Part shown: positions 21,788-42,745 of the stretch, in pieces
Numbering within the stretch: the stretch's first letter is position 1
Layout: the number at the start of each line of letters is the position of its first letter
IMG/VR virus record: IMGVR_UViG_2744054492_000006
DNA: 64,000 nucleotides
Direction: 5' to 3' (one strand)
Origin: an uncultured virus (IMG/VR IMGVR_UViG_2744054492_000006)
Taxonomy: Duplodnaviria > Heunggongvirae > Uroviricota > Caudoviricetes
Position numbers and translations under genes: made by a program
The notes under the pieces: generated by a model
The model's input: only the letters and a program-made list of their open reading frames with translations
The model's database searches: none
Told to the model about the DNA's origin: nothing

Positions 21788-22027
21788 ATGCCCCGACTGA
21801 TACGGTATTTTGATAAGGCAACCGAAGAAGAACGAGGATCACTCTTTCTCATCAATCCAGATTTGAAAGAACTTCAAACCATTTTCGCTGAACCAGAAAC
21901 ACAGCCAATGTATGATTGTTGGCCCATCGATTCTGAAAAGGCGCGTTTGTTGAGGAAGTTCGTAAGCGAAGACTTCGTTTTTGATTTCTCAAGGCATGAG
22001 TACTTCCTTGAGTATGACACAGACTAA
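21788..22027 (+). CDS. Small acidic protein resembling colicin E3/cloacin-type immunity proteins
   Basis: YFDKATEE near N-terminus and DFSRHEYFLEYD at C-terminus; 79 aa. Confidence 0.55.
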   Translation: MPRLIRYFDKATEEERGSLFLINPDLKELQTIFAEPETQPMYDCWPIDSEKARLLRKFVSEDFVFDFSRHEYFLEYDTD

Positions 22028-22049
22028 ATGTCGACTCTTTGCACCTCAG

Positions 22050-22673
22050 CTATTCCGCAGCTTCCATCACTTCAGCCTGCCCGGCGTTTTCTTCCGCGCT
22101 CATTGCCTGCATGAATTCAGAAAGCTCCCGGTGAAGTTCTGCCAGCAGATCATCTGCAACCACAACTGCCGCCTCTGACTGGCGACCATCCAAACCGACA
22201 TCCCGAGACAGCCTGTCAGGCATGCCGTTCACCGCATTGCGAACCGCTGAGAACGTCCGTTCCAGCAACGCCACAACATCGGCACGGGCGATCAGCTCAC
22301 CACGCGATTGTGCAAGCTTGTTATAGGCTGCCTCAGTTTCATAAAGTTCCTTACGCTGCCTTGGTGTCAGCGCCATTTCAGAATTGCCAGACCCACCACC
22401 CAACAAAGCCATCTGCATTTGCCGGATATTGCTTTGGATCTTCTCTTCTTCCGCAGCCTCTGAAGCTTCCCTTTCCTTCTGCCATGCATAGCAAACCGAA
22501 AGCCGGAACTCATAAGCTTGCCCGTTGGTGCCCTTGCTCTCACAAGGCATCCCCTCGCAAATCCACTGATCAATGGTGGGCAGGCTTTTCTTAAAAGCTT
22601 CTGCAAGGTGGCGCTTGTTCACCACCACATCTTCCACACCATCAGGGAGCGGATAGCGTTCAACATTCTCCAT
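22050..22673 (-). CDS. terS: Terminase small subunit (Nu1-like HTH)
   Basis: VNKRHLAEAF..TIDQW..GMP winged helix, GELI motif; upstream of terL. Confidence 0.9.
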   Translation of the reverse strand: MENVERYPLPDGVEDVVVNKRHLAEAFKKSLPTIDQWICEGMPCESKGTNGQAYEFRLSVCYAWQKEREASEAAEEEKIQSNIRQMQMALLGGGSGNSEMALTPRQRKELYETEAAYNKLAQSRGELIARADVVALLERTFSAVRNAVNGMPDRLSRDVGLDGRQSEAAVVVADDLLAELHRELSEFMQAMSAEENAGQAEVMEAAE

Positions 22674-22747
22674 GCACGCCCCCCTTCAATCTGGAACAAC
22701 AACAGAAACGAAAACACCAAGTGCTTCCGCACACCACACAAACCAAT

Positions 22748-22798
22748 GTCCCGCAGTTCCGAACTACCCGCAGGCCGGCGCGTGCCCAGGAAGGACCC
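22748..22798 (-). promoter_or_regulatory. Putative lambda-like cos site (cosQ GGGTCCT plus cosN-like segment)
   Basis: Minus strand GGGTCCT-N23-GGTAGTTCGGAA-CTGCGGG just upstream of terS. Confidence 0.6.
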
Positions 22799-22808
22799 AA
22801 AGCTTCAG

Positions 22809-23597
22809 CTAAGCGCTTTGACTGATCATCTCTTTCAGTTGTTCAATACTCAACGCCTGATCACGCTTGCGATGCACCACAGAATGGCAATTGGAGCAAA
22901 GTGGAACCAAGTCTTTCCGCGGATCAATCTCAATAGGACCACCACGCATTGAGAGCGGTTCGATATGGTGCACCTCGATAAAGCCCTCAGCATAGCTCCC
23001 GTAGAATGAGCCGAAGTCGAAGCCGCAAGCCTTGCAGACACGCCCATGAAACTCGATCGCCTGCGCTCTCAGTTTTGGATCACGCTCATAAGTCGAAACA
23101 GTCCGATAACTCTGCTCGCCTTCCATTGAAGCAGTATAGCTGCTTTGCGTGTCATCCTCTTCAAAACCATAGGTCATGTTATCAGGAACAGGCACTTGCC
23201 CTAAGATACGATAGTAGACAGCGATTGTAATTTCCCGAACGCCATCACGCCAATAATTGCTGCGCTTGCTCTCTGGAATATCCTCGAGATAGTCGCCATC
23301 TTTCTTTGCCAGGATCGCCTCATCGAAAGGACGGTAGTTTACGATATCGGCATAAAGATCGCCTTTTTTGCTCTCAGGGTCAGGTTTAACTGTCCCAATC
23401 TCGGCAACAGCGAAATAGTGAGGCTCTTTCGTCAAACGCTGATCGGCAAACTTGGCCTGTTTCAACTTACCTTTGTAATAAATAACTTTTGTGCCGCTTG
23501 GCAGCAGTTTCGCATAGCGTTTGGGAAAGTGATAAAGCTGACCTGTCTTATCATCCCATGGAGAGACATCATTCTCAGTAATTACGGCAAATTTCAT
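22809..23597 (-). CDS. EVE/PUA-like + McrA-type HNH endonuclease
   Basis: ERDPKLR..CKACGFDF..IEVHH..LCSNCH; N-terminal domain with YHFP, IYY and YFA pattern. Confidence 0.8.
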   Translation of the reverse strand: MKFAVITENDVSPWDDKTGQLYHFPKRYAKLLPSGTKVIYYKGKLKQAKFADQRLTKEPHYFAVAEIGTVKPDPESKKGDLYADIVNYRPFDEAILAKKDGDYLEDIPESKRSNYWRDGVREITIAVYYRILGQVPVPDNMTYGFEEDDTQSSYTASMEGEQSYRTVSTYERDPKLRAQAIEFHGRVCKACGFDFGSFYGSYAEGFIEVHHIEPLSMRGGPIEIDPRKDLVPLCSNCHSVVHRKRDQALSIEQLKEMISQSA

Positions 23598-23685
23598 AGG
23601 TGCTACTCAAATAATATTGGAAAAAATTACATTCCAATATTTTAAGGTTTAGCGCCATACGCCTTACAACAAAAAATTGTAGATC

Positions 23686-24312
23686 CTATCTAGCTGTTGC
23701 TAATGCTCTCTGCATCGCACGCCGGAAGTTACGTTTCATCCGGGCGTCTGCAGTCTTTCGCGCACCCTCTTCAAAGCGCAGGCGCGGTTGATAGTCTGCG
23801 CTCTTCTCATAGGCAACCAGCAGCTTTAAACCCGTGCGGCCCTTAGTGCCCCGTGAGCTATCCCGGAGCTTGCCGCGCCTAGGGCGCTGCCAGATTCCCT
23901 CAACCCCGTTGATCTCACCTTGAAACACATCCGGGCGTTTCAACAGCCGGTCAATACTGCGCCGTGGGAGGTTACCGTATTTATTGAGCCGCTGAGAGAA
24001 CGGAACTGCCAACGCTTTCCGCTTTGGCCTTCTGGTTCCTCCTTTCTCCTGCAGCTCCAAATAGTCAGCCTGCCTATCCTTAAAGAAAACAACGGCCGAA
24101 AGGTTGCGCTTACTTGCCCGTCTCAGTGCAAGGCCGCGTTTGGTGAAGGGTGTGGGACGGTCCAGCCGCCTGCTTAATGCTTTCTCGCTATTGGTCTTGA
24201 TATCCTGCACTGTCTCATTCAGCGCTAAGCTGATCGCATAGGGCACTTGCCGTTGTTCCACTTTGGTCAGCCCATTTGCGACTTCATCAAAGTTTGCAAT
24301 GTAGCGGATCAT
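23686..24312 (-). CDS. First late gene; basic phage tail-completion-like (gpZ-like) protein
   Basis: QVPYAISLALNET..LDRPTPFT family found before terS in lambdoid phages. Confidence 0.7.
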   Translation of the reverse strand: MIRYIANFDEVANGLTKVEQRQVPYAISLALNETVQDIKTNSEKALSRRLDRPTPFTKRGLALRRASKRNLSAVVFFKDRQADYLELQEKGGTRRPKRKALAVPFSQRLNKYGNLPRRSIDRLLKRPDVFQGEINGVEGIWQRPRRGKLRDSSRGTKGRTGLKLLVAYEKSADYQPRLRFEEGARKTADARMKRNFRRAMQRALATAR

Positions 24313-24326
24313 AGCCCCCCCAACGA

Positions 24327-24406
24327 AAAAGCGCTCTCAGGCGGCAACCTGAAAGCGCAATTTTTCATCATAATTGAATCATGCCTATTAGTGCTGCAGG
24401 TGTCAA
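24327..24406 (-). promoter_or_regulatory. Late promoter (PR'-like) followed by a terminator hairpin
   Basis: Minus strand TTGACA (24406-24401)-17 bp-CATGAT, then GCGCTTTCAGG..CCTGAGAGCGCTTTTT. Confidence 0.6.
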
Positions 24407-24419
24407 GTATCCTGAAAGT

Positions 24420-25343
24420 CTACCTCTCGATAAACTCGAACGCTAACTCAACCAAACTCCCAGAGGCTTTAGCGTCTAACAATGAATTAGGTTCATCACT
24501 TGCGACTGTGGAATGGCGCCACACCATAATAGCAGGATGCCAAATCAACGCGATCAAGATAGAAATAGCTGCGAAAATCTTCGGCCCCAATGGTAGCAGC
24601 AAGACATTTCGTTCTCGCGCCTCAAACTCAACAACACGTCTCAGCTCGAAGTAAAGTTTCTCCGGCTTTAGGAGGTTGTAGCTTTGAAGCAGTTCTGGTT
24701 GCTCTAAAAAGCTAAAATCAAGATTGTTCTTTTGAATTTCTTCTTCAAATCTTTTGTCTGTACCTATCGGTGAAAAGCAATAGATACGCTCTGGCTCAAG
24801 CACATCAATTGCACCGATTATTCTTCCAAACTCATAACCAGCTCCAGCAATGAGGGTTAGATGTTCTCGAAATAGACTCGCCTCACCTAAGAAAGCAGCA
24901 GATATTGGCCCGAAATCTTTCACATGATCCAAAGTTGCTTTAGGTAAAACGAATGATTGAGGATGATAGGTAATCAGTATTTGACCAAACTTATCAAAAT
25001 TCAGAAATAGAAACTCAAACATCGCCGAAATTTTTTTTCGATCTAATGATGTTACATCAATCTCTAGGTTCACTTGGCCTACCATTGGTAGGTTCATCTC
25101 CAAGTCACTCAAGAGATGTGAGAAATCGTTCCTTCGCACACAATTTAGATCTGATATTACAGATGAATTTTCATCATAAGAATGTATCCCATGACTTTGG
25201 TAATCAAATAAAAAAATTTGCGTACCAGATAGCTCATCTTCTCTATTACGCAATCGTTCAATCGATCGATGTTCATAACCAACACAGCCAAGAAAAACAT
25301 TCGGCTGAACTGATTTAGGGTCAACTAAAATAACATCAAGCAT
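24420..25343 (-). CDS. Hypothetical protein with two Rossmann/CARF-like halves
   Basis: Duplicated GYE..R motif (VGYEHRS, AGYEFGR) with IDVTSLDRK and LLPLGPK; overlaps the ATPase stop. Confidence 0.7.
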   Translation of the reverse strand: MLDVILVDPKSVQPNVFLGCVGYEHRSIERLRNREDELSGTQIFLFDYQSHGIHSYDENSSVISDLNCVRRNDFSHLLSDLEMNLPMVGQVNLEIDVTSLDRKKISAMFEFLFLNFDKFGQILITYHPQSFVLPKATLDHVKDFGPISAAFLGEASLFREHLTLIAGAGYEFGRIIGAIDVLEPERIYCFSPIGTDKRFEEEIQKNNLDFSFLEQPELLQSYNLLKPEKLYFELRRVVEFEARERNVLLLPLGPKIFAAISILIALIWHPAIMVWRHSTVASDEPNSLLDAKASGSLVELAFEFIER

Positions 25344-27198
25344 CTGTTGTAGCCCAGTTTAATAGATCTGGTTGCTCATCTTGCTTTTTACTGTTTTGTG
25401 GCATTGCAGAAAGAACTCGTTCTTGCCCGGTAATAGTAGGCAATTTGTAAAACGGTGCTAAGCGATGAGAGATACGAAGACGACAGCCTTCGAGATCAAA
25501 TATTAACTGTTTTCCATCTGATCGTTGATCTACTACGAGCGCCCCGGAATTGATTCCAATAATCAAAGCATCTCTAATTTTTGTAGATACGCCCTTGAGA
25601 CGATAAGAAAGCGCTGGCTCTGGTTGAAATTTACTATCAAACAAGTTTTCTGACAGTGTCTCTCCCAACCGATCGACGACTGCAAGTGTAGGGTACACCT
25701 CATTTGCGCTTTTCTCGGACGGATTATAGGATGCTATCAAAGCCCGAAAACGATCTACATTGCGAGGTATTGCGCGGTTCTGTGCTATTTTCGAATCCAC
25801 CCTGTCGTTAAAGCTAACGAATAATTCATTAAGCAAATACTTAACAGCTCTCGGATTCCCCTCCGTAAGACTTAATAACTGATCGAAGCCGTGATAGTAG
25901 CCATAACCTTTAGCAGAGCGACGTCTTGTCGAAGATTGATGAGTTTTACTTTTACCAGCCTTCGAGAAATAATAACTTCTTATCTCAGCTATCGGCGCAA
26001 CTTTTCTTAGATAAGATGCTCTCTGATTTTCACTTCTCAGACCATCTATATCTGACACGCTCTTAAAATCATTACTAGCCATGTGCTCAATGAAAGACCT
26101 ATCTCCGGCAGATTTTGCCGCTGTATAGATGGCACTAACTTGACGCTCAAAACCTTTTGACACGAACTTGCGAGTGTCTTTCTTTATTGCACTTGAGCTA
26201 TTGAGGTAATGAACGAACTCACTAAACACGATCCCTCTATTCTCACACTCCTTTTGAATAAGCTCTTTTGAGAATTTATGATCGGCATCTGCGAACTTAT
26301 TTGCAAGAATGATTGAATGAAAGTCTTGGCCGTCAACAGGTCCTGTTTCACTCGTCCTAAGTCGTTCCTCCAAGTCATAAAAATCAATATACGGAAACAA
26401 GGAAAACTTCAAAACAGCTCTCTGATCAAAGGAGCGTAAGTTTTCATATAAGCGAGTTAAAACCCTTTTTGGTGCAATCTCCATTTCATCAAAACTTACG
26501 CTCCATCGATGCACACCAATTTGACTTTCAACAGCATCAAAAAAACCTTTTAGCATAACCAAAAAGTCGAGATGCCCTACAAGCCGAATGGCATCTAGAT
26601 CTGCGCTTGAGTTGAAAGGGCTTACCGCTGATCGAAACATGTTGATCCGCTTCAAGAGAGCAAGCTTGAGCCCGATAAACGAAAACTGCTTTGTGGGTAA
26701 CGACCAGAGTTCAGAGCACATTTCACAGATAAGAGATTCCTGAACATCATTTAGGTGCGCAGCCCATGGTACCGCCTCTCCATGAATGGTGAGGTCACTA
26801 ACAATCCTGGCATCTTCAAAGGAAGCGATCAGTTGATACAAACAATGATCAGTAAACAGACCATTTAGAATTAAATCCATATCACTTTTCGAGATATCCA
26901 AATTCGAAACAAGCTGTGCTGTGCCCTTCCAAATCGATTCTGCAGGGATGTAGACTGGAATATACTCAAAATTTACTCTTCTGAGGCGATCTGCAAACTC
27001 TTCTCTTTGGTGTAGGTAATACAAACCAGTAGCCGTCAGTGCCTTCATTATAGTGGTTTTACCTAACCCTCTAGGTCCAACTAAAACTAAATTCTGATAG
27101 GCTGCGGCCTGCTCAAAATACTCAGGCATCACGAAGGAAGAAGCGATATCTTTCGGACTGGCATTTCGCGCATTGAACTGTGTTGAAATCATAATCAC
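25336..27198 (-). CDS. ORC/CDC6-like (STAND-type) P-loop ATPase
   Basis: GPRGLGKTT Walker A, SVSFDEME Walker B, GNPR sensor and probable C-terminal winged helix. Confidence 0.8.
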   Translation of the reverse strand: MIMISTQFNARNASPKDIASSFVMPEYFEQAAAYQNLVLVGPRGLGKTTIMKALTATGLYYLHQREEFADRLRRVNFEYIPVYIPAESIWKGTAQLVSNLDISKSDMDLILNGLFTDHCLYQLIASFEDARIVSDLTIHGEAVPWAAHLNDVQESLICEMCSELWSLPTKQFSFIGLKLALLKRINMFRSAVSPFNSSADLDAIRLVGHLDFLVMLKGFFDAVESQIGVHRWSVSFDEMEIAPKRVLTRLYENLRSFDQRAVLKFSLFPYIDFYDLEERLRTSETGPVDGQDFHSIILANKFADADHKFSKELIQKECENRGIVFSEFVHYLNSSSAIKKDTRKFVSKGFERQVSAIYTAAKSAGDRSFIEHMASNDFKSVSDIDGLRSENQRASYLRKVAPIAEIRSYYFSKAGKSKTHQSSTRRRSAKGYGYYHGFDQLLSLTEGNPRAVKYLLNELFVSFNDRVDSKIAQNRAIPRNVDRFRALIASYNPSEKSANEVYPTLAVVDRLGETLSENLFDSKFQPEPALSYRLKGVSTKIRDALIIGINSGALVVDQRSDGKQLIFDLEGCRLRISHRLAPFYKLPTITGQERVLSAMPQNSKKQDEQPDLLNWATTDA

Positions 27199-28382
27199 TG
27201 CACTCCGCGCATAAGAGCCTGAATATCTGACCGCGCAGATACAATCGACAAATCGTGTTCAATCAATTTTTGATTGATTACTTCAACTTCGTCCATACTT
27301 ACATACGCAAGCTCTGGCACAGATTCGAAGAGAGCATTTTTAGCAACCATCGAAGTACAATCTATCGCACAAATTTTTGTAACAATGTCATCGATCGCGT
27401 AGTCTTTTCCAAACGGACGCGTAAAAGGCATATTAGGCGTTCTACTTCGCTCCCATTTTCCTCCACCCCAATCCCAAGAATAGATTGTACCTTCAGGCCG
27501 TGGAGCGTCTAGCTTAATGTCCAGGATATGGAACTGATTTGCAAAGTAACGTTCATGGTTCTTGTATGGATATGCGGCAAAACTAGATGCTGAAAAGACG
27601 ACCGGCTTAACATGTCCCAACTCCGCACACCTTAACTTAACCATATGCTTATGGCCGTGTACGACAATACAGGACTTCCCGGTGTCTCCAAGCGATTGCA
27701 AAAGCTTCGCCCCATCAGACATCTGATCATAATCAGGGTCTACAATTTCGTCGACCCGCAGCGGGTGGTGATGCATCATTACAATAAAGTGACTATTTTC
27801 AGATTGTTCGATTATCTCAACAATCTTCGCAATCATGGCTTCGCTAAGATGACCTATCGCCCATATCGATCTTGAAGCATTCGCATCTCCACCTAATCCA
27901 TGAAGTCTACAGGTATCAACCGCGATAACATCGCATCCTAAAAGTGAAAGAACTGCAACACCGTCAGCAAAATAGTCTTTCTGTTGCTGACGGTCGTTAA
28001 AAGGGAATGGAGGGGCAATTTGCTTCAGGAAATCTATTCTTTTCTGAGCTTGATCTATGTCTTCGATACGAGAAAGCAAATCATGATTTCCGGTCACACC
28101 CATTACATGCTGAATATTCAGTTTTCTCGCAACAAGGTGTAAGTCGTTCCAAGCTTGCATAAGTGGTAATTGCTTGGATTGGTGGGCAAAATCACCCAAA
28201 CAAAGTATTGCGTCAACTTGCAACTCTTCATCGGAAAGACACTTGGTAAGCGCAAGTATTGGATTTTTGGAAGGACATCTTTCTTCGATGTTAAACGAGC
28301 TTCCCTCGTTTCCAAAATAGACATTTGCACCTTCCAAATCAGATGACATGCAATGAATATCACTTACAACAAGAAATCTCAT
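27195..28382 (-). CDS. Calcineurin-like metallophosphoesterase
   Basis: SDIH, LGDF, GNHD, HHHP and HGHKH motifs. Confidence 0.92.
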   Translation of the reverse strand: MRFLVVSDIHCMSSDLEGANVYFGNEGSSFNIEERCPSKNPILALTKCLSDEELQVDAILCLGDFAHQSKQLPLMQAWNDLHLVARKLNIQHVMGVTGNHDLLSRIEDIDQAQKRIDFLKQIAPPFPFNDRQQQKDYFADGVAVLSLLGCDVIAVDTCRLHGLGGDANASRSIWAIGHLSEAMIAKIVEIIEQSENSHFIVMMHHHPLRVDEIVDPDYDQMSDGAKLLQSLGDTGKSCIVVHGHKHMVKLRCAELGHVKPVVFSASSFAAYPYKNHERYFANQFHILDIKLDAPRPEGTIYSWDWGGGKWERSRTPNMPFTRPFGKDYAIDDIVTKICAIDCTSMVAKNALFESVPELAYVSMDEVEVINQKLIEHDLSIVSARSDIQALMRGVQ

Positions 28383-28383
28383 A

Positions 28384-29202
28384 TTATTCTTCGCAAATTA
28401 CAGCTAGCAACTCAGTTTCAGTCTTTCTACGCCCGACAAACCCACCCACATTTCTAGTGACCGGCACCGTGCCCAAAATGTATGGTTCAAATAAATCTCT
28501 AAACTCGCCGCAATCTCTATAAGAGATCACAATTCTATTGTTAGTCGCGTACTTCTTTGAAATCTTCAACAAGCGCGCTAGGTCGTCTCCGCGAAATTGC
28601 TTAGAGTTGTATTCACTAAATACTCGCGCTTCGTTTGTAAAATACGGAGGATCCATGTAAATGCAACTACCTTCAGGCTTAACGGTATCAATAAATGCCT
28701 CGAAATCATCACTTGAAATAATAGCTCTTCTCAAAACAGATGAAATATTCTGAAAGTCATTCAAAGAAAGCTTTTGCTTTACCTTCTTTTTGGCGCCAAA
28801 AGGTGTGTTAAATTCACCTTTTTTGTTTGTTCTGTAAATTCCATTAAAGCAATAATGATTCAAGTAGACGAATCTTGCCGCCTTCTCAACTCCTAGCTGA
28901 AGCTCGTTAAACTCCTCGCGAACCTCATAGTATCGCTCCTCTGAAATCTCAATTTTATCATAGATCTTCCACACATCATCAGCACTATCTCTGACATGTC
29001 GAAAGCAATCCATCAAATTCTCATTGACATCATTCAAAAATGCTACTTGAGGTTCGAACTTAAAAAAGAACGCTGCTGATCCGCAAAAAGGCTCGATGTA
29101 TGGGCGAGAGAAATCTAAATAGGATTTGATTTTCTCTGAAACATTGGATTTGCTACCCGCCCACTTTAGCAGTTTTAACGTTTCGGACATAATAGCTTCC
29201 AT
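28384..29202 (-). CDS. Dam/D12-class N6-adenine DNA methyltransferase
   Basis: KWAGSK, EPFCGS, NDVN, FNGIYRTN and DPPY motifs. Confidence 0.92.
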   Translation of the reverse strand: MEAIMSETLKLLKWAGSKSNVSEKIKSYLDFSRPYIEPFCGSAAFFFKFEPQVAFLNDVNENLMDCFRHVRDSADDVWKIYDKIEISEERYYEVREEFNELQLGVEKAARFVYLNHYCFNGIYRTNKKGEFNTPFGAKKKVKQKLSLNDFQNISSVLRRAIISSDDFEAFIDTVKPEGSCIYMDPPYFTNEARVFSEYNSKQFRGDDLARLLKISKKYATNNRIVISYRDCGEFRDLFEPYILGTVPVTRNVGGFVGRRKTETELLAVICEE

Positions 29203-29354
29203 TATCCAAGCATAAAGTGAGGCTATCCAAGTTTTACCCCCTTGAAGATGAAGTGATTCACATCGTCGTTAGTAATAGCTAGTTATCGAAATTGCAGACG
29301 AAATACAATTGATAGAGACTGCTAGATAACCTGTTATACTCATCGGTCATCAGG

Positions 29355-29810
29355 TTAGAATCCACTTTCATGTATTATCTTCAAGCTAGGAGCCTTACAA
29401 AGTACCAAAAATTTGTGCGCCAACACTTCGAGTGCTCCATACACAGGTAGGCGTCCCAGTTTGCTTGGCACCCGATATCTAAGAGACATGTTTCTATGCA
29501 GGTCGCTAATAACCGCCAATAATCGTATTTCCTTTTCATTCAAAACAAGCATCTTGTCAGCACCATAAGCATTGCACTCGTCCCACAATCTAGCCAAGTT
29601 ATGTCCCAGCTTTTTAACTTTTTTATTGTTACAGCCATTTTCAAGCAAAAACGATTTTAGAGATAGTTCAATAGAGAATGCCATCAAAAGCATAACCGGG
29701 CGTGGAGCTGACATTGCGTATGCGGGAAACTTCCCAACATTCTTGTCTGCATCATTCGCGCATGCAAAGTACAATCTCGCCTCCGCCGCAAATTCTTCGT
29801 GTTTTTTCAA
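29355..29810 (-). CDS. HEPN-like protein
   Basis: FSIELSLKSFL..GHNL..LW..LRY pattern. Confidence 0.65.
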   Translation of the reverse strand: MKKHEEFAAEARLYFACANDADKNVGKFPAYAMSAPRPVMLLMAFSIELSLKSFLLENGCNNKKVKKLGHNLARLWDECNAYGADKMLVLNEKEIRLLAVISDLHRNMSLRYRVPSKLGRLPVYGALEVLAHKFLVLCKAPSLKIIHESGF

Positions 29811-29872
29811 TTAATTTACTCCTTGCAAATGAACAGCAATAAAACCTGTTTATGATGCCTGATAGTATCTCA

Positions 29873-30385
29873 CTACTCAATCTCCCCCACCACATGCCCC
29901 AATCCATTGCGCATCAGCCTCGAAACATAATCGCGGGTAGCCCTACTTGGCGTCCCAGCCTCTCTCTTCGCCTGGTTCTCCTCAAACCCAATCGCCGCTT
30001 CTGTGATAGATAGGCCCTGCCCGGCTATAGCGAACACTGCCTGCGATTGATCAGGCCCCAAGAGGGTTGCGATCCGTTCCAGTGTTCGGTTTGCGTCTGT
30101 GGTGGAGACAAGAAGCCAGTCGCGCACTTTGCGGCTGCAATCAACGCGGGGCTGGGTGAAGTCGATGGAGCTAGCTTGCCCCTCGCATTCAGCATACAGC
30201 GCCCGGATCTTGCAGCCTGCCAGGTATTGCTGCTTGGTGATGTGTTTGTTGTTGTAAAGCCATTCCAGCGCCTGCCCGCGTTGGTACTTTGCCCGGCGCA
30301 GCGCTTCCTGCTTTTGCTCTTTCTTGGTGCCGCGCAAGCGGAGTGGATCTGTATTCTTAGAGCTCAACATCCTGCATCTCCCCAT
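29873..30385 (-). CDS. Putative late-gene regulator / Q-like antiterminator
   Basis: I...QY.AG..IR motif and C-terminal sigma70 region-4-like HTH; position after replication genes. Confidence 0.6.
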   Translation of the reverse strand: MGRCRMLSSKNTDPLRLRGTKKEQKQEALRRAKYQRGQALEWLYNNKHITKQQYLAGCKIRALYAECEGQASSIDFTQPRVDCSRKVRDWLLVSTTDANRTLERIATLLGPDQSQAVFAIAGQGLSITEAAIGFEENQAKREAGTPSRATRDYVSRLMRNGLGHVVGEIE

Positions 30386-31022
30386 GTCGTAAAACTTCTT
30401 TAGCGATCAGGCCTGCCAGCCGCTCACGCCGCCGCTCAAAAGTATCTGCCATCAACTGAATTGGATGGTTTGGCGGGAGCGCTGCGAGCTCCCGTGTGGT
30501 TTCCCCGCGCAGCACATCCAGAGCAGTTTTCACCTGCCCGGCCACGCGCCGGTTGCGCTCCATTGTGGCCACCACAAGAATCTCAGTTTCCGCCATATCC
30601 GGCATGCGCTTTTCCCGGCGCACAAAGTCCACCAGATCCGCTTGCCAGCCAGCAAGGCAGGCGGAAAGCGCAGTGTCTGCATTCGCTCCCACCATTATCT
30701 TGATGGCCACATGCTCAGGCCATGGATAGCCGCCCACCTGCAGGCTGGGCTCAGGTGTGCCTTCCAACTGCCGTTGCGCCTCAGTGCAGGCTTTCACGCA
30801 CTCTCCAACAAACGGCCAAACAGTGCTTTTTGCAGCCAGCACCAACGCATCCGCTCCGGCTTTCAGCACCTCCTCTGAAAACCCGCTAAGCTTCTCTCGC
30901 AAAGAGGTGAAATAGGCTTCCTCGTTGCTGCCTGGCACCTTTTTGAAAGTGCCGCCCAGCGTACTCAAAAAGTGCTGCGCTATGAGGTCATTGGCTGATT
31001 TTGTCTGTGCGGCCGCGCTCAT
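30357..31022 (-). CDS. Hypothetical replication-module protein
   Basis: Coupled (ATGA) to the initiator gene; WP.VGE motif as in helicase-loader-like proteins. Confidence 0.6.
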   Translation of the reverse strand: MSAAAQTKSANDLIAQHFLSTLGGTFKKVPGSNEEAYFTSLREKLSGFSEEVLKAGADALVLAAKSTVWPFVGECVKACTEAQRQLEGTPEPSLQVGGYPWPEHVAIKIMVGANADTALSACLAGWQADLVDFVRREKRMPDMAETEILVVATMERNRRVAGQVKTALDVLRGETTRELAALPPNHPIQLMADTFERRRERLAGLIAKEVLRHGEMQDVEL

Positions 31023-31912
31023 GCATACCCCTCACCAAACACTTTGGTAATCGCCGCCCGGCAGCGCTCTGCTGATCTGTCCAGATCTCGCGCCCTCGCT
31101 GCTTTGGCCTTGCTGCCATCAGGGATAAACCGGCCTTCAATCTTGCCCAGCTCTTCGCGGCTGCGTTTGGCCGCAAGAATGGCGCGGGTGAAGTAGTTGA
31201 GGCTGCGCGGTTGCTCCGGCGCACGCCCCAAAACATGGGTAATTGTGGGTTTTACATCCATTTCAAGATCGCACCCATGGATCAACCAGCCCCAAACCGG
31301 GTTTAGGCCGCCCCGCACCTGCGCTGTGGTGGCATCAAGCCCTAGTGATTTCAAAAACCGACTACAGCCCTCAACAAACCTCTGCCCGGCCTTATCTGCG
31401 GGTGGTGAGCTGGAAGGTTGAGTGGAAGCATTTTCGCATAAAGACCCACTCGCAGCCGCTTTGTCTTCTTCTTCTTTAGGTTTTAAGGACTCGTTCTTAT
31501 AGGTGCCGATCTGGGGTGGCAGGGGCTGCCGCTTATTGGATGGCACCCCCTGCCTGTCATTCACATGGGTATCCGGGGGAGCCTCTTCTAAAAGATCCCC
31601 CTGCCCGTCCTGGCGCTTTCGCTTGTTCTCCACCCGATAAGTATGGGAGCAGTCACCACCATCAGCACGCACACCTCGCATCACTTTAAGCCAGCCATAG
31701 CGCACAAGGTTGCCAATGGATTTTTGCACTGTAGAGCGTGCAATCTCCAACTGCCGGGCAATCTTCACCTGACTGCGATAGGTCACCCCATTGCCATCGG
31801 TAGAACAGCACAACACGCCCAGAACCTGAATATCCCTTGGTTTCAGGCGCGTATCTTCAAAAACACCAGCAGGAATAATAGACAAACGGGGACGGTTAAC
31901 AGGCTTAGGCAT
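31019..31912 (-). CDS. Phage replication initiator with N-terminal HTH
   Basis: YRSQVKIARQLEIARSTVQKSIGNL..GWL winged helix. Confidence 0.75.
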   Translation of the reverse strand: MPKPVNRPRLSIIPAGVFEDTRLKPRDIQVLGVLCCSTDGNGVTYRSQVKIARQLEIARSTVQKSIGNLVRYGWLKVMRGVRADGGDCSHTYRVENKRKRQDGQGDLLEEAPPDTHVNDRQGVPSNKRQPLPPQIGTYKNESLKPKEEEDKAAASGSLCENASTQPSSSPPADKAGQRFVEGCSRFLKSLGLDATTAQVRGGLNPVWGWLIHGCDLEMDVKPTITHVLGRAPEQPRSLNYFTRAILAAKRSREELGKIEGRFIPDGSKAKAARARDLDRSAERCRAAITKVFGEGYA

Positions 31913-32059
31913 TTTACGACCTCCTGAGCAGTGCGGATAATTGGAAAAGTAAGAACTAGAAAATCAGTGGCGGAATACGCGCTCTGATTACAAAGGGATT
32001 GAAGCTAACAAGGTGACTTGTAACTATACCCTCAGAACAGCCCTAACGGCTTGTGGCGG

Positions 32060-32284
32060 TCACGGACCCATAGCTTTCCGTCTCCCGTTGCCACGTCTCC
32101 AATTGAAGAGATGACGTGGCATTTCCATATTGGCGGCATGCGCCAACTGTTCCATCTCATGAAACCACGAAGCAGGAAATTGCCCTCGCACAACGGCAGC
32201 GCTTACAGCGCCCGATTTAACCCCGAGAGCATTTTGAATATTCTTCCTGCCAAGCGTTTGAGCAACTTCGCGTGCGTTAATCAT
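32060..32284 (-). CDS. Cro-like HTH regulator
   Basis: LGRKNIQNALGV..AVS..FPASW; divergent from the repressor. Confidence 0.75.
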   Translation of the reverse strand: MINAREVAQTLGRKNIQNALGVKSGAVSAAVVRGQFPASWFHEMEQLAHAANMEMPRHLFNWRRGNGRRKAMGP

Positions 32285-32293
32285 GCGACAAAA

Positions 32294-32354
32294 ATCAACG
32301 TTTCGTAGATTATAGTCAACACCATAAATACAACATAGTCTACATTTATTGGAT
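32294..32354. promoter_or_regulatory. OR-like operators (17-bp ATCYAC-N5-GTRGAT) and PR -35
   Basis: ATCAACGTTTCGTAGAT (32294-32310), GTCTACATTTATTGGAT (32338-32354), minus-strand TTGACT at 32319-32314. Confidence 0.7.
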
Positions 32355-32690
32355 TATGATAGAATGCAATCCATGACTAGAAGAGTGATTTCAGGACGTT
32401 ACGCGGATTCCGCAATACGACTTAGAGCTGTGAGAAAATACTTCGGTATGAACCAGAAGGATTTCGCGGCAAATGCCGACATTCAATACAAGTCCTACAA
32501 TCAATGGGAAACCGGAGACTTTCGCGTCTCAATACCCGGCGCAATAAAGCTGCGTGAGCGATATGGGATCTCAATGGACTTCATATATTTAGGCAACATT
32601 GATGCATTGCCCACCAAAATGGCCAATGAACTCATGTCCATATTACGCGACAATGCCTCTAATAAATCGAACGATAGTGGGGACGATTGA
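32349..32690 (+). CDS. CI-like XRE-family repressor (no peptidase domain; true start probably slightly downstream)
   Basis: RLRAVR..MNQKDFA..YNQWETG..GISMDFIYLG HTH_3 pattern. Confidence 0.88.
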   Translation: MDYDRMQSMTRRVISGRYADSAIRLRAVRKYFGMNQKDFAANADIQYKSYNQWETGDFRVSIPGAIKLRERYGISMDFIYLGNIDALPTKMANELMSILRDNASNKSNDSGDD

Positions 32691-33003
32691 GCCCCTTTTA
32701 ACAACAACTGGAAGCGTTCTTCTTGGTCCAAAACGACCTCCCACATCCCCTAAGTATCCGATATTTAACAACGATGATTCGTTTACTTCGCGTTAATAAA
32801 CCAATTAGAATTGCAAAGCACACAAGACCCTCGTTGAGCAATTCCAACGCATTAGTGAACTCTTTTCACCCTTCATCAGAACACTCTGAATTTTCTCAGC
32901 ACTAAAGATTCTTTCCATACAAAGAGCAGCTATTTAAGTGCGCAGCTCTATACCCCTGAGTGCGTCAAATATTTGCATCAATCAAAAGAAGGTCAACTAA
33001 TAA

Positions 33004-33842: not shown

Positions 33843-34088
33843 ATGCCTAACCAACTCATTTTGGTAAATCAAAAGACAGCAGCAGAAATGCTTGGGGTTT
33901 CTGTAACCCTCTTCAAACGTCTACGGTCAACCGATCACAGGCTCACGCCTGCTGTCATCCCAGAGACAAAGGGCGAAGAGCGCTATTATGTGCCAGATCT
34001 TCAGCAGTGGGCGCATTCACTAAAGTATCCTCACACGGATCCTTTAACCTCAAGCGGTGGAATGTGGGATGACCAAAGTGCGGCTTAA
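33843..34088 (+). CDS. Excisionase-like HTH protein
   Basis: AAEMLGVS..RY...DL..W; overlaps the integrase start. Confidence 0.75.
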   Translation: MPNQLILVNQKTAAEMLGVSVTLFKRLRSTDHRLTPAVIPETKGEERYYVPDLQQWAHSLKYPHTDPLTSSGGMWDDQSAA

Positions 34089-35136
34089 AGGCTTATCGAC
34101 ATATGCACGCAATGGCAGATGGTATGTTTATATTCGCAGCAACCGGAAAGCACTTGTAAAAGGCTTTGAAGGGTCCAGAGAAGCCCTTCAAAGCCACCTC
34201 TCAACACCAGAGATCCTGCAGCGCTATACAAAGCTGGTAGACGCTCCAAAGGACAAAGGCTTCGGCACCCTTGGCGGGTTGATAGAGTATTATCAAACCA
34301 AAGACCGCTGGACCAAACTCTCCCCACGCACGCAATCAGACTACCAGAGGGTCATAGACTGGCTGAGAGCAAAGAATGTTCTCAAAGCCCCTCTGATAAC
34401 GGTTGCCCCCTCAGACATGGCAATCACCCGCGACAAAGCCGCCGAAGACAAATACCCCAAATTCTCAAACGATGTACTCGCCATGCTGTCAGCCGCCTTT
34501 TCCGTGGGCGTCGAGTATGGCTATGCAGGCTTGAAGCTAAACCCGGTCAGGGGTATCAGCCGAAAATACAAAAACTCAGCAAACGCCAACCGAAGATGGA
34601 AAGAAGCAGAGTTCGAAGCAATCTTTGAGATCATCCCCAAACACCTGAAGCCAGTCCTGGCATTGGCAAGGTGGACAGGAGCCAGAGGGCAAGACATAGC
34701 CTCACTTAGATGGGACAATCTGCAAGGATCGCAGGCAGAAGGCTACTCCATCACCTACACCGCCAAAAAGAACAAGGTTGATTGCCTCTTCTACGTCTTG
34801 CCACCCCTGCAGGACGTGCTGAACGCAGAAGATAAATCAACCCTCACCATCTGTAAGAATTCCCGAGGCAAGCCCTACCCGTCAGAGAACGCCATGCGCA
34901 AGGCCTGGCAGGACTTCAAAGCAAAGCCGGTCTTCAAAGACACCTGCCCCACTGGATCAGATCTCACATTGCACGGTTTGCGCGTGACCTATGCCAGCGA
35001 GCTGAAAGACCATGGATTTTCAGATGAAGATGTTGCCCAAGCCATTGGCGACAAATCAACATCAATGGGTAAGCACTATGGCAGAGGCAAGAGTGTTGAA
35101 AAATTCGCTTCAAGGGTACGTAGAACTCTCTCCTAG
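34069..35136 (+). CDS. int: Tyrosine integrase
   Basis: TGAR, K, HGLR and HY catalytic motifs; ends 105 bp before tRNA-Cys. Confidence 0.93.
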   Translation: MTKVRLKGLSTYARNGRWYVYIRSNRKALVKGFEGSREALQSHLSTPEILQRYTKLVDAPKDKGFGTLGGLIEYYQTKDRWTKLSPRTQSDYQRVIDWLRAKNVLKAPLITVAPSDMAITRDKAAEDKYPKFSNDVLAMLSAAFSVGVEYGYAGLKLNPVRGISRKYKNSANANRRWKEAEFEAIFEIIPKHLKPVLALARWTGARGQDIASLRWDNLQGSQAEGYSITYTAKKNKVDCLFYVLPPLQDVLNAEDKSTLTICKNSRGKPYPSENAMRKAWQDFKAKPVFKDTCPTGSDLTLHGLRVTYASELKDHGFSDEDVAQAIGDKSTSMGKHYGRGKSVEKFASRVRRTLS

Positions 35137-35241: not shown

Positions 35242-35315
35242 GGCCTCTTGGCGGAGTGGTGACGCAGCGGATTGCAAATCCGTGTACGCCGGTTCGATTC
35301 CGGCAGAGGCCTCCA
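35242..35315 (+). tRNA. tRNA-Cys (GCA)
   Basis: GGCCTCT/AGAGGCC acceptor stem, TTGCAAA anticodon loop, GGTTCGATTCC T-arm, encoded CCA. Confidence 0.97.
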
Positions 35316-36908: not shown

Positions 36909-37709
36909 CTAATTGGAGATGATCAGCTCAGAGACCTGCTTACCCGCACCTTTCGCAATGGAATAGTTCAGGCTGACAACATCCTGCTGAAAGCCGTCAA
37001 AGGTCTGTCGCGTTTCGTCTCTATCATTCAGCGAGAGAATGAACCGACCTGCGATTTTGGAAAGCCGTTCTGCCATCTCCGCAAAGTCGGAGCGCTCAAA
37101 TACCCCCTTGCCGTAATCTGTCTCACCACCCCAGTAAGGCGGATCGATATAGAACAACGTCTGCTCTCCATCATAACGCTCTATGCAAGCACGCCAGTCC
37201 AAGTTTTCTATGGTCACTGCAGACAGCCTGTCTGCAACCTTCTCTATGTTACTCAGAACACGCTTTACGTTAAAGCGAGATGGCCGCTCTATCGCAGTCC
37301 CAAACGACTGTCCCACAGACTTACCACCAAATGCGAGCCGTTGGAGGTAATAGAAGCGAACAGCCCTTTGAATGTCAGTCAGATAATCCAGTCCACTATC
37401 TTTGAGCGCTTCAAATTCCTCACGTGAGGCAAACATGTATTCCAGGCTTCGCAAGAACTCAGCCTTGTGTGAGCGCAAAACACGAAAGAACGTGACAAGC
37501 TCACTATTTATATCGTTAATCACTTCGCATTTGGTGACAGAGCTTCTCTTGAAAAACACCCCGCCCATTCCGCAGAACACATCCACATAACTCTGGTGCG
37601 GGGTCTGATTGATCTTACCGACAATACGAGCAGCAAGCTGGCTTTTGCCGCCAAGATAGGGTGCCACCGGTTCAGCGTTGACCGGAGCGACTTCTCCAAA
37701 CAAGTTCAT
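36909..37709 (-). CDS. D12-class N6-adenine DNA methyltransferase (phage type; start MNLFGE)
   Basis: PYLGGKS, DVFCGMGG, EVINDIN and FYIDPPY motifs. Confidence 0.92.
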   Translation of the reverse strand: MNLFGEVAPVNAEPVAPYLGGKSQLAARIVGKINQTPHQSYVDVFCGMGGVFFKRSSVTKCEVINDINSELVTFFRVLRSHKAEFLRSLEYMFASREEFEALKDSGLDYLTDIQRAVRFYYLQRLAFGGKSVGQSFGTAIERPSRFNVKRVLSNIEKVADRLSAVTIENLDWRACIERYDGEQTLFYIDPPYWGGETDYGKGVFERSDFAEMAERLSKIAGRFILSLNDRDETRQTFDGFQQDVVSLNYSIAKGAGKQVSELIISN

Positions 37710-37740
37710 ATTGAAGTTTACTCTCAAGCTATGGCAAGAT

Positions 37741-37881
37741 TTCCCAACCATACAATTAACAATGTATGGCTTGGTGGGAATGAGCCTTTCAGCTTGCTTA
37801 ACGCTCTCACGGACTGATTTGACAAGGCCCGTGGATTGACGTGTTCACGCACGTCGTTCTTCCCACCAATACTCTGGTGGG
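37741..37881 (-). ncRNA. Putative structured cis-regulatory leader of the methylase gene
   Basis: TTGGTGGGAA/TTCCCACCAA closing stem enclosing three hairpins, with competing flanking hairpins. Confidence 0.55.
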
Positions 37882-38354: not shown

Positions 38355-39446
38355 ATGGAAGATTCCGACTTACGTCCTCACTTTATTCAGCTTCTTAGAT
38401 TCGCTGTTGTTGGAGACAAAAGAGGTGCAACGAATTTTGCACGTAAAACAGCTCGTGCTCTTAGGATGAGCAATAGCGACTTCGCAAGTGAAATTTCTGA
38501 TGTAATTGAAACACTTAAGACAAGCGAGGCAAGGGCATTCAGAGGCACTCCGAAACACATAGTGCCGGTTGATAGTGAAAGCCGCCATGAGTTGCTGCGC
38601 GTCGAGTACCCCGGAAAGCAACCAAAACCGTTTTTGCCCTCGAATATAGAAAGAGAAATTCTCCAAATTGTACACGAAAGACAGAAAATCGATCAACTGC
38701 ATGAGGCGGGCTTAACACCAGCAAAAACCCTGTTACTTTCCGGTGCTCCAGGCGTTGGTAAAACGATGTCGGCGAGATGGTTAGCTCAGCAACTGAATAA
38801 ACCATTGTTTGTACTCGACCTTGCAAGCGTAATGTCTTCTTTCCTAGGGAAAACAGGGACTAACCTTAAGCAGGTCTTAGATTTTGCAAAGAGGGAAGAT
38901 GGGATTCTTCTTCTAGATGAATTTGATGCAATCGCAAAAAAAAGAGATGATGAAGGAGAGATCGGTGAATTGAAACGCCTCGTTACAGTACTCTTGCAAG
39001 AGATTGATTTATGGCCAGAAAATCAACTGCTTATTGCTGCAACGAACCATTCCGAGTTACTTGATCCGGCTGTGTGGCGTCGATTTGATGTAGCCATTCT
39101 GTTCCCTCATCTCGACAGAAACATTATGGCACATGTGATTGAAAGAGAGATAAACAACCGAGCGGATGTAAGCTGGGCCAATGTTTTAGCGTATATCACC
39201 GATTGCAACTCATATGATGAAGCAGCATCTCTCGTAAGGAGAACTTTACGAAATGCTATTGTAAACGACATTGATACTGATTCCGCATTTCGTCTGTTAA
39301 CTCAGGAGTACCAAGCAAATTTGACTTCTGAGAAGAAAAAAATATTGGCCAGTAATCTTAGCAAGCTGGGTTATTCTCAAAGAAAAACCAGTGAGCTTAC
39401 AGGGTTAGCCAGAGAGACTTTAAGAAAATTGGATATTACGTGGTGA
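38355..39446 (+). CDS. ietA: AAA+ ATPase, IetA-like
   Basis: GAPGVGKT, LLDEFDAIAKKRDD..GELKR, AATNH..LDPAVWRRFD; adjacent to S8 protease. Confidence 0.85.
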   Translation: MEDSDLRPHFIQLLRFAVVGDKRGATNFARKTARALRMSNSDFASEISDVIETLKTSEARAFRGTPKHIVPVDSESRHELLRVEYPGKQPKPFLPSNIEREILQIVHERQKIDQLHEAGLTPAKTLLLSGAPGVGKTMSARWLAQQLNKPLFVLDLASVMSSFLGKTGTNLKQVLDFAKREDGILLLDEFDAIAKKRDDEGEIGELKRLVTVLLQEIDLWPENQLLIAATNHSELLDPAVWRRFDVAILFPHLDRNIMAHVIEREINNRADVSWANVLAYITDCNSYDEAASLVRRTLRNAIVNDIDTDSAFRLLTQEYQANLTSEKKKILASNLSKLGYSQRKTSELTGLARETLRKLDITW

Positions 39447-39453
39447 GGCAATT

Positions 39454-41701: not shown

Positions 41702-42745
41702 ATGCAATTGATGGCCAAAATGAATAATGAAAATCTAACTCAACAAGCTAAAGAACTATCTGACGCAATTACCAAACGCATCAACCGAGCTGACTTTACC
41801 AATCTCACAATAAGAATTTCATTTATTTTAGGAGGAGGCCTTGCTGCAACAATTGGTGGACTAATGCCTGCTCCAGCAGTTGGTGAGATCCCCTGGAAGT
41901 CAATTATTGGTATCGGCGGTGCAGTACTTACTCTCTTAGGCGGCCTAGCATTACTATTTCTCGAACAAGACCAAACTTCCGATATGGATAAAGCTAGACG
42001 TGCAATCGAAACAGCCCGTGTTTATTTGAGCAATCGAGAAGAAATTCAAAGGCAGTTCGATGATATGCGTAAGCTAGACTCCAAACGACGAAGTCTTATA
42101 TCTGCACTGCAGGCAATGCGAGAAGTTTCAGAACAATCAGCCTACACAGGAGAAGTGGACACAGCTAAGTCACTGAAGGATCTATTCGACGTTTCACTCA
42201 ATCAATTGTTACCTGCAATGGGTTATCAATCTGGGGAGTTTCATTCAATAAGCGTCTACAAAGTTAGATCTGTTTCTGGTGAAGATGAACTTCTTGAAGG
42301 TTTAGTAGATCGACGCTCAAATCGCATCGAAGAAGTCGCACCAGGCCGAACTTGGGCAATGGGCGAAGGCTTCACTGGTGCTGCTTGGCAGCGCAATTCA
42401 GAGCTAATAATAGACGACTCCGCTCACCACACAATTAAGTCAGCTTTTTATGTTCCTGATGGCAAGATTAGAGAAGATGATCATGAAAGGTATCGCTCCA
42501 TAGCTTCTTTTCCTATTCGTGTAGGTACAGAGGGGAAAGTTTGGGGAATTGTAACGATTTCAAGCGATATGGTAGGTAGGTTCAGCACTAATGGGGCTGC
42601 AGGTGCAACACAAAATGTGGAAGCTGCGCGGACTGTAGCTGGAATGGTAGCTTTACTCGTAGGGATCACCTATATAAACTCTAAGAAGTTAGGAATCGAG
42701 GAAAAGGAGACTTCTGATGATCAAGAGCAGCCAGAAAGCGCTTAA
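41702..42745 (+). CDS. Two-TM + coiled-coil + GAF-domain protein
   Basis: Two N-terminal TM helices; GEGFTGAAW..YRSIASFPI..WGIVTISSD GAF pattern. Confidence 0.75.
   Translation: MQLMAKMNNENLTQQAKELSDAITKRINRADFTNLTIRISFILGGGLAATIGGLMPAPAVGEIPWKSIIGIGGAVLTLLGGLALLFLEQDQTSDMDKARRAIETARVYLSNREEIQRQFDDMRKLDSKRRSLISALQAMREVSEQSAYTGEVDTAKSLKDLFDVSLNQLLPAMGYQSGEFHSISVYKVRSVSGEDELLEGLVDRRSNRIEEVAPGRTWAMGEGFTGAAWQRNSELIIDDSAHHTIKSAFYVPDGKIREDDHERYRSIASFPIRVGTEGKVWGIVTISSDMVGRFSTNGAAGATQNVEAARTVAGMVALLVGITYINSKKLGIEEKETSDDQEQPESA

Follow-up and report, generated by a model that had tools for sequence, protein, structure and literature searches.

A Phage-Borne Dam–Phosphoesterase–ATPase–CARF6 Cassette as a Predicted Anti-Phage Defence System

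The window analyzed here is a stretch of 64,000 nucleotides from an uncultured virus of the Caudoviricetes (IMG/VR record IMGVR_UViG_2744054492_000006). At positions 24420-29202, it carries a compact cassette of four minus-strand genes encoding a Dam-family N6-adenine DNA methyltransferase, a calcineurin-like metallophosphoesterase, an ORC-CDC6-like AAA+ ATPase and a tandem-CARF protein of the CARF6 group. Judged from the sequences and their gene neighborhoods, this operon-like unit is very probably a defence system against phages or other mobile elements. The four genes keep their order in related genomes, the cassette recurs intact on other mobile elements, and in the provirus it occupies a slot in which related proviruses hold other defence genes. 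A mechanism, in which the CARF6 protein would sense a nucleotide and the phosphoesterase would destroy nucleotides, is proposed below in more tentative terms.

Organization and Conservation of the Cassette

The four open reading frames (ORFs) are unbroken, and adjacent genes abut or overlap (Table 1). Read directly from the sequence, the methylase/phosphoesterase junction is TAA-t-ATG, with a 1-nt gap; the phosphoesterase/ATPase junction is GTGA, a 4-nt overlap; and the ATPase/CARF6 junction is ATGCTTGA, an 8-nt overlap. Together with the ORF list, these reads confirm the initial annotation, which had described four AT-rich minus-strand genes joined by exactly such junctions. The ATPase frame begins with GTG, and an alternative in-frame ATG two codons further in corresponds to the start of an Atlas record. 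The guanine-cytosine (GC) content is 0.40-0.46 across 24-30 kb, compared with ~0.49-0.58 on either side.

Table 1. Position and predicted nature of the cassette genes and of the elements around them.
Feature	Position	Strand	Description
Dam-family (D12) N6-adenine DNA methyltransferase	28384..29202	-	272 aa, cassette gene 1
Calcineurin-like metallophosphoesterase	27195..28382	-	395 aa, winged helix-turn-helix (wHTH)-like tail at the C-terminus; predicted effector
ORC-CDC6-like AAA+ ATPase	25336..27198	-	620 aa; predicted switch/scaffold
Tandem-CARF (CARF6) protein	24420..25343	-	307 aa, without fused effector; predicted nucleotide sensor
Terminator-like hairpin	24331..24358	-	12-bp stem, 7 G-C pairs, then TTTTT; 62 nt past the CARF6 stop
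Sigma-70-like -35/-10 pair, weak	29201..29229	-	Ends on the Dam start codon; 9/12 consensus matches
p151, 151-aa ORF	29355..29810	-	Inside the cargo slot, upstream of Dam; outside the conserved cassette
Variable cargo slot (p151 and four-gene cassette)	24408..29876	.	Low GC; blastn homology breaks

When one genome per species was scanned with the ATPase, 17 loci were recovered, each from Alphaproteobacteria; one of them is a 2.3-kb contig, leaving 16 with flanking sequence. The order Dam-phosphoesterase-ATPase-CARF6 and the common strand are identical in all 16, which represent at least 13 named genera, and in each case the Dam and phosphoesterase genes overlap or are separated by no more than 5 nt. 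Identities to the window proteins range from 25 to 59%, the lowest values being 40, 27, 26 and 25% for Dam, phosphoesterase, ATPase and CARF6, respectively, and they co-vary between the proteins (rho 0.66-0.96, 15 loci). These synteny counts and correlations are descriptive, as the loci are related by descent and not independent. Only a near-identical Pseudovibrio locus shares its flanks with the window. The conservation of synteny excludes a chance arrangement. The upstream Dam gene is also retained in two more distant loci, L033 (Dam 36% identical) and L051.

Five matches were located on plasmids, of which four were examined, the fifth being a second Sinorhizobium plasmid. The annotations of Methylobacterium, Cupriavidus (Betaproteobacteria) and Sinorhizobium plasmids list a Dam, a metallophosphoesterase and two hypothetical proteins whose sizes fit; among these annotated plasmids, the fourth protein was shown to be CARF6-like for that of Cupriavidus alone. 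On a Pseudoalteromonas plasmid (L020), a 614-aa protein (2895-4739, plus strand) with no match in Pfam or PADLOC replaces Dam in front of phosphoesterase, ATPase and CARF6. The GC content of the cassette is lower than that of its flanks in 14 of 14 loci, and 11 of these 14 have a recombinase or integrase, a conjugation or mobilization gene, or a toxin-antitoxin (TA) or defence gene (HipA, Mrr, NB-ARC, SIR2, McrBC) at most four genes away. The cassette recurs intact on other mobile elements, and the gene order first noticed in the window is kept in every flanked related locus as well as in the row of genes on the annotated plasmids. Close DNA or protein relatives were absent from E. coli genomes and from the phage collection.

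The Encoded Proteins

The first protein is a D12-class methylase, matching PF02086 (1.5e-45), PADLOC MTase_II (4.7e-62) and TIGR00571 (201 bits, cut-off 114.85), and it aligns over its full length with the E. coli Dam and DpnM chains (~1e-28). The DPPY catalytic motif is visible in the translation and in the alignment to E. coli Dam, and is intact, as previously claimed. K9, N120, R124 and P134 of E. coli Dam are identical, and Y119 and L122 are conservatively replaced (F, I); we take these six positions to be contacts to GATC. Since they are retained, GATC is the likely target of the cassette Dam. This motif is not depleted in the provirus, with observed/expected ratios of 1.14 in the cargo and 1.58 elsewhere. 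Pfam and PADLOC scans of the cassette proteins found no restriction endonuclease partner, and no nuclease family matched any of the four, in agreement with the initial annotation; a classical restriction-modification pair is thus not present. We also asked whether the HNH gene at 22809-23597 could be the missing nuclease, but rejected this, since it is an HNH of phage type (phrog_8048) next to the terminase and part of a separate indel.

The window encodes two different Dam-type enzymes. The second D12-class adenine methylase, at 36909-37751 on the minus strand (PADLOC MTase_II PDLC03253, 1.4e-64), is 23% identical to that of the cassette.

The phosphoesterase matches PF00149 (Metallophos, 7.9e-14). 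All six metal-binding and catalytic motifs of the calcineurin-like superfamily are present, and D8, H10, D64, N99, H100, H204, H205, H242, H244 and H246 are invariant among 15 homologues with identities down to 16%, which supports the earlier assignment. Compared with the Protein Data Bank (PDB) as a profile, the protein finds first the cyclic-nucleotide phosphodiesterases Lmo2642 (1.5e-13) and Rv0805 (8e-10), then GpdQ (7e-6); Icc is also among the nearest solved relatives, whereas the Mre11/SbcD nucleases are reached only at ~3e-3. This points to a small phosphodiester or nucleotide as the substrate, rather than DNA ends. The single sequence gave no match in the PDB. In the family scans of the cassette proteins, three weak NCBIfam matches were rejected as memberships: DS9_1, the "anti-phage phosphoesterase" (33 bits, cut-off 420), DS41_1 (19 bits, cut-off 370) and Sll1717 (30 bits, cut-off 75).

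The ATPase belongs to PF24389 (ORC-CDC6-like; E 1.1e-109, 368 bits, cut-off 27). The match is full length, residues 6-594 covering model positions 4-569 of 571. Walker A and Walker B are intact, and the AAA+ core is followed by a lid and a winged-helix region; the ORC/CDC6-like P-loop ATPase of the initial annotation is thereby established. No PDB match was obtained with the single sequence, the profile and the C-terminal half gave P-loop matches or noise only, and Foldseek on the structure model returned nothing at E<=0.001. Weak nSTAND matches were seen in a relative. Of the earlier view that this protein is a STAND-type infection sensor, the fold-level resemblance stands; a sensing function of the ATPase goes beyond it and is kept here as a conjecture.

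The last protein has no Pfam family, but matches the "CARF6--CARF_CARF_CARF" models of PADLOC over nearly its full length (PDLC01918, 1.3e-42; PDLC01915, 4.6e-32). Its structure model shows the Rossmann-like CARF fold duplicated in tandem and, with a full structural aligner, resembles the double-CARF nuclease Can1; it also matches CARF and SAVED proteins that bind cyclic oligoadenylates (cOA). The tandem CARF-like architecture claimed from the sequence is hence borne out by both approaches. A Foldseek ranking of the same model, headed by KCC C-terminal domains, KaiC and UspE at low template-modelling (TM) scores, was not taken as kinship, because the full structural aligner placed CARF proteins clearly first. 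Against BFVD, only generic Rossmann folds were found. Conserved polar residues are E24, R26, D96, R102, E171, E183, K255 and S278, all candidates for lining a putative ligand pocket. A profile search collected 1539 cluster representatives at E<=0.001; none of the longer fused forms of this subfamily scored, which is weak evidence against their existence.

The Wider ATPase and CARF6 Family

Two unbiased samples were searched for PF24389. The family occurred in 8 of 401 genomes of Pseudomonadota and 6 of 401 of Alphaproteobacteria, corresponding to ~1.5-2% of the sampled Pseudomonadota. With one genome in common and two near-duplicates, 12 distinct loci were obtained; the methylase census among them was re-checked by whole-genome family scans, as ORF calls in high-GC genomes were incomplete. 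In all 12, the gene directly after the ATPase encodes a CARF6 protein (PADLOC E 2e-11 to 3e-220). The gene in front of the ATPase, on the other hand, varies: Metallophos in four loci, PRTase-CE in five and HD-CE in one. In one further locus (L054), the ATPase carries a fused Ser/Thr kinase, and in another, nothing is adjacent and PfkB and HAD genes lie nearby. The invariant core is thus ATPase plus CARF6; effectors of different nucleotide-directed enzyme classes can replace one another beside it.

A methylase lies within the cluster in 7 of the 12 loci, namely, D12 in two, C5 in two, N6_N4 in one and a gamma-type N6 enzyme, placed after CARF6, in two; a ParB-N6_N4 methylase is the divergent neighbour in one more (L055). 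A DNA-modifying gene is therefore a frequent accessory of the core, strictly retained in the window's own, Dam-linked branch. The PADLOC model "CARF6--CARF_STK_AAA" (1187 positions) is tiled by the split proteins of L054, the kinase-ATPase fusion on 3-814 and the CARF6 protein on 883-1182. Fused kinase-ATPase-CARF proteins must hence exist.

A divergent branch of the core was also observed (L036:6628-14059 and L055:3703-10845), with CARF6 proteins of ~415-430 aa (PDLC01910). Its loci also encode a PfkB-family kinase and a ~640-aa protein containing a HAD hydrolase domain; L055 additionally has PRTase-CE.

Provirus Context

Phage genes flank the cassette: a replication initiator, the small and large terminase subunits and a tail-completion-like gene. 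The same ATPase gene occurs in a provirus record in which 95% of the window's words are found. Eight sister proviruses were retrieved via the tail-completion-like gene and compared by blastn. Homology to them ends at window position ~29877-29887 and restarts at ~24406, which delimits a variable cargo slot made up of p151 and the four genes. The same cassette fills this slot in one of the eight sisters, and a single small gene is found in two. Each of the other five has a different content: a C5 methylase, an 815-aa double-HATPase (HSP90-like) protein, a receiver-like protein and a HAD_PNKP phosphatase (L038, 3420-8510); an Avs2-like REase-STAND protein, a radical-SAM enzyme and an HNH nuclease; a Dam-like methylase plus a DndB/DpdB-like protein; a 1037-aa HD-CE::HATPase fusion (L043, 5568-8681); and AbiH with an LlaJI-type restriction system. 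Because the slot holds other defence cargo in sister proviruses, the cassette occupies a prophage defence hotspot, and this is evidence from location for a defence role. The notion of a prophage-borne immunity module is thereby strengthened, as the genes travel together between phage genes in a slot used for defence. A low-sensitivity, pattern-based scan of viral contigs with the ATPase alignment recovered only this provirus lineage; phage carriage thus appears unusual for the family.

A phage-borne CARF protein next to a phosphodiesterase-like enzyme might conversely serve counter-defence, the former acting as a sponge for host cyclic oligonucleotides and the latter degrading them, so that the phage would be spared by CBASS or type III CRISPR. 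We consider this extremely improbable. The same viral-contig scan, within its sensitivity, did not recover the cassette from any other viral lineage, and outside this one it is carried by plasmids, conjugative elements and chromosomal islands, with TA and restriction genes as neighbours. The slot of the sister proviruses holds defence rather than anti-defence genes, and the BFVD comparison described above revealed generic Rossmann matches only. Moreover, the effector position is swapped with PRTase-CE, HD-CE or a kinase, and an ATPase and a methylase would be pointless in a sponge.

Proposed Mechanism and Alternatives

The order of genes and of fused proteins mirrors the effector-NTPase-sensor layout of STAND/NLR proteins; on this basis, we propose that CARF6 senses, the ATPase switches and the phosphoesterase delivers the output. 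A nucleotide-derived small molecule would bind the cleft between the two CARF lobes and license an ATP-dependent assembly of the ORC-CDC6-like ATPase, a nucleotide-driven switch or scaffold, which in turn would activate the phosphoesterase. The latter would hydrolyse free nucleotides (dNTP/NTP, NAD+ or cyclic nucleotides), and their loss would stall both phage replication and host growth, resulting in abortive infection. That the output acts on nucleotides is suggested by the relatives of the phosphoesterase and by its exchange with PRTase-CE and HD-CE. Complex formation and the nucleotide substrate are what we infer from these comparisons.

Pfam and PADLOC identified no signal synthase (Cas10, CD-NTase, mCpol) in the cassette or its conserved neighbours. 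As no nucleotide cyclase is encoded and Dam is the only other enzyme, Dam is proposed to write the precursor of the CARF ligand: it would mark resident DNA in advance with N6-methyladenine (m6A), and phage degradation of the marked DNA would free methylated (oligo)nucleotides as the ligand. The analogy is to PUA-Cal-HAD, a Calcineurin-CE effector reported to be triggered by the methylated nucleotide m6-dAMP, which is set free from Dam-methylated host DNA when a phage causes its breakdown, and to deplete dNTPs (10.64898/2026.01.15.699771). Such a ligand is a serious candidate in our view, though still a doubtful one. The full scheme, a split effector-NTPase-sensor machine with a methylome-derived CARF ligand and a nucleotide-degrading output, is the reading we favour, put forward tentatively. 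In its most general form, as a cyclase-free CARF pathway whose messenger is stored beforehand as a chromosomal methyl mark, freed when a phage shreds the DNA and read by a tandem CARF, the idea seems to us rather unlikely; if it were true, the swaps between Dam, C5 and other methylases would reflect a sensor family tuned to different modified nucleotides.

Several observations weigh against this scheme. The ligands known for CARF and SAVED proteins are oligoadenylates, cyclic or linear, that dedicated synthases produce, and we know of no CARF that binds a methylated deoxynucleotide. The methylase class varies (D12, N6_N4, gamma-N6, C5), and a generic self-mark fits this variety at least as well as an m6A-specific ligand. 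No methylase was found nearby in 4 of the 12 loci (L034, L035, L036, L054) by the whole-genome family scans; one of these loci stops at a contig edge and one has DruA instead. The ATPase-CARF6 core is therefore retained or functional without a dedicated methylase. The wHTH-like tail of the phosphoesterase (residues 324-374) matches PF24408 (wHTH-Calcineurin_assc) below the cut-off, with E 0.0033 and 17.7 bits for a cut-off of 27; the aligned homologues reach 31.1 bits (L051) and 23 bits (L033). A full-text literature search yielded no paper on the four-gene system and no experimental test of any family member. Finally, ORC/Cdc6-clade ATPases are described as binding DNA and, in BREX and MANTIS, as acting on it together with methylases (PMC12839542; MANTIS abstract).

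That last point leads to the main rival, a restriction-like reading. Dam would mark the resident DNA, the winged-helix end of the ATPase would load on unmethylated DNA and activate the phosphoesterase, which would attack nucleotides or the DNA itself, and the CARF protein would tune or reset the response. BREX and MANTIS are reported to do such reading with related ATPases, and the variety of methylase classes suits it no less than the ligand scheme. The invariant partner of the ATPase is, however, a small-molecule sensor, with CARF6 in 12 of 12 loci and a methylase in 7-8. The effectors of the family are nucleotide-directed classes or a kinase, not nucleases, and the phosphoesterase itself resembles cyclic-nucleotide phosphodiesterases more closely than Mre11/SbcD. 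If unmethylated DNA provoked a suicidal response, every transfer of so mobile a cassette into a naive host would also be dangerous. The GATC ratios given above indicate no depletion in the provirus. Restriction-like action is, on balance, unlikely.

The loci without an adjacent methylase raise a different question, namely whether Dam is a mere passenger. The system would then consist of phosphoesterase, ATPase and CARF6 only, its ligand being a cyclic oligonucleotide from CBASS or type III CRISPR of the host or from the phage, while Dam would be a separate gene riding along, such as an anti-restriction or epigenetic gene of a phage or plasmid. Orphan Dam genes are common on prophages, the second D12 methylase of the window is a case at hand, and the CARF6 fold matches proteins that bind cOA. 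Yet, Dam lies directly upstream in all 16 flanked loci from their 13 or more genera, in L033 and L051 and on plasmids, and its identities co-vary tightly with those of the phosphoesterase (rho 0.92, descriptive like the values above). At such divergence, a passenger would be expected to be lost or replaced, which makes this reading quite improbable.

In line with the methylase-guarded module suggested in the initial annotation, the methylase or the pool of S-adenosylmethionine (SAM) and S-adenosylhomocysteine (SAH) might be what is guarded: phage anti-restriction factors such as DNA mimics or SAM-degrading enzymes would perturb it, the CARF protein would sense the change, and the effector would be freed. 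DNA-mimic proteins are reported to interfere with the PUA-Cal-HAD system (10.64898/2026.01.15.699771). The fold matches of the CARF6 protein are consistent with such sensing, since Rossmann folds of the CARF type are able to bind adenine nucleotides and their derivatives. Family members without a methylase retain the same core, however, and the models give no sign of a SAM-type pocket, for which no directed search was made. We regard a guard function as very improbable.

Comparison with Known Systems

PADLOC names no system in the cassette: only the methylase and CARF6 match its models, and the phosphoesterase and ATPase match none. Together with the literature search, this agrees with the initial annotation, which could not match the combination to any experimentally named system. 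Its supposition that related architectures had been noted computationally also proved right. The parts are catalogued as PF24389 (ORC-CDC6-like), PF24390 (PRTase-CE), PF24391 (HD-CE) and PF24408 (wHTH-Calcineurin_assc) in Pfam and as CARF6 (PDLC01910-01925) in PADLOC-DB, and these dedicated, consecutively numbered families (PF24389-24391, with PF24408) and models imply that the gene neighbourhood has been catalogued. Nicastro et al. 2023 (Nucleic Acids Research) is presumably the origin of the Pfam families, and Makarova et al. 2020 (Nucleic Acids Research) that of the CARF6 clade. The catalogued neighbourhoods have the same core with a PRTase-CE, HD-CE or Metallophos plus wHTH effector and an accessory methylase; the window copy differs in being phage-borne, in a defence hotspot and in the Dam-linked Metallophos branch. 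It is, by sequence, a phage-borne addition to a catalogued family whose mechanism we infer.

A functional parallel is PUA-Cal-HAD of E. coli ECOR28, reported as an m6-dAMP-triggered, dNTP-depleting filament (10.64898/2026.01.15.699771). Both are anti-phage modules, predicted in the case of the cassette, with a calcineurin-superfamily effector, and PUA-Cal-HAD relies on Dam-methylated host DNA; modules of this type are linked genomically to N6-adenine methylases without restriction enzymes, according to the same source. In contrast, Pfam and PADLOC found neither a PUA-like domain nor a HAD partner in the cassette, which instead has a predicted tandem-CARF sensor, an interposed AAA+ ATPase and a Dam of its own.

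BREX and MANTIS (Gao_RL) are defences that rely on methylation and have an ORC/Cdc6-clade AAA+ ATPase as their basis. PADLOC matched none of the 8 scanned proteins to their partners (PglZ, BrxA/B/L, MtsB/D, or any Brx, Pgl or Mts protein). The methylase of the cassette is small, autonomous and Dam-type, not large and system-specific, its phosphoesterase has a calcineurin rather than an alkaline-phosphatase fold, and a CARF sensor is present. Unlike the CARF/SAVED effectors Can1, Can2, Csm6 and Cap4/Cap5, the CARF6 protein has no fused effector domain; unlike type III CRISPR and CBASS, the cassette contains no Cas10, CD-NTase or other synthase and has no CRISPR context. In STAND/NLR NTPases, such as Avs and bNACHT, the sensor is made of protein-recognizing repeats, whereas here, it is a predicted nucleotide-binding CARF, and Pfam files the ATPase under ORC/CDC6.

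The family is widespread and has dedicated database models. It joins DNA methylation, CARF nucleotide sensing and nucleotide-depleting effectors, the latter two as predicted here, themes that are usually separate, and the window provides a compact (4.8 kb), complete and clearly bounded representative. If the CARF ligand were indeed a methylated nucleotide, the newly reported principle of the methylome as a danger signal would extend to the CARF superfamily, and the presence of nuclease-free methylases beside many conflict systems would be explained.

Other Features of the Window

Around the cassette, the hairpin downstream of CARF6 is a consensus-pattern match only. It lies within DNA common to the sister proviruses and may be a phage-backbone element rather than a part of the cassette. 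The promoter-like pair at the Dam start is a lead only, as the sigma-70-like scan found 16 sites compared with 10.8 in shuffled sequences. Rfam detected no RNA family across 22000-33000. The p151 ORF is seen only in the near-identical loci L001 and L037 and is missing from every other cassette locus; it has no match in Pfam, PADLOC, NCBIfam or PHROG. In its Atlas neighbour clusters, 15-21% of the members carry HEPN, which is a lead only, and p151 may be a small HEPN-like toxin or accessory.

Among the phage genes, the HNH endonuclease (minus strand; phrog_8048, 3.9e-62) is located between the tail-completion-like gene and the small terminase. The corresponding indel (22806-23708) is present in the window and in one of the eight sister proviruses (L043). 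The tail-completion or minor-tail-like gene (23686-24312, minus strand; phrog_1924, 2.8e-55) is placed upstream of the terminase genes, outside the tail module, and this unusual position is kept in 8 of 8 sister proviruses.

At the edge of the phage-like region, a tRNA-Cys (35242-35315, plus strand) directly follows a 359-aa ORF (34057-35136, plus strand) that has no match in PADLOC; the two may represent the integration site and the integrase. Beyond the tRNA-Cys, a low-GC stretch contains an IetAS defence system (38355-41682, plus strand), composed of IetA (38355-39446; PADLOC 2.1e-82) and IetS (39454-41682; 9.8e-48) and followed by a 347-aa ORF (41702-42745).

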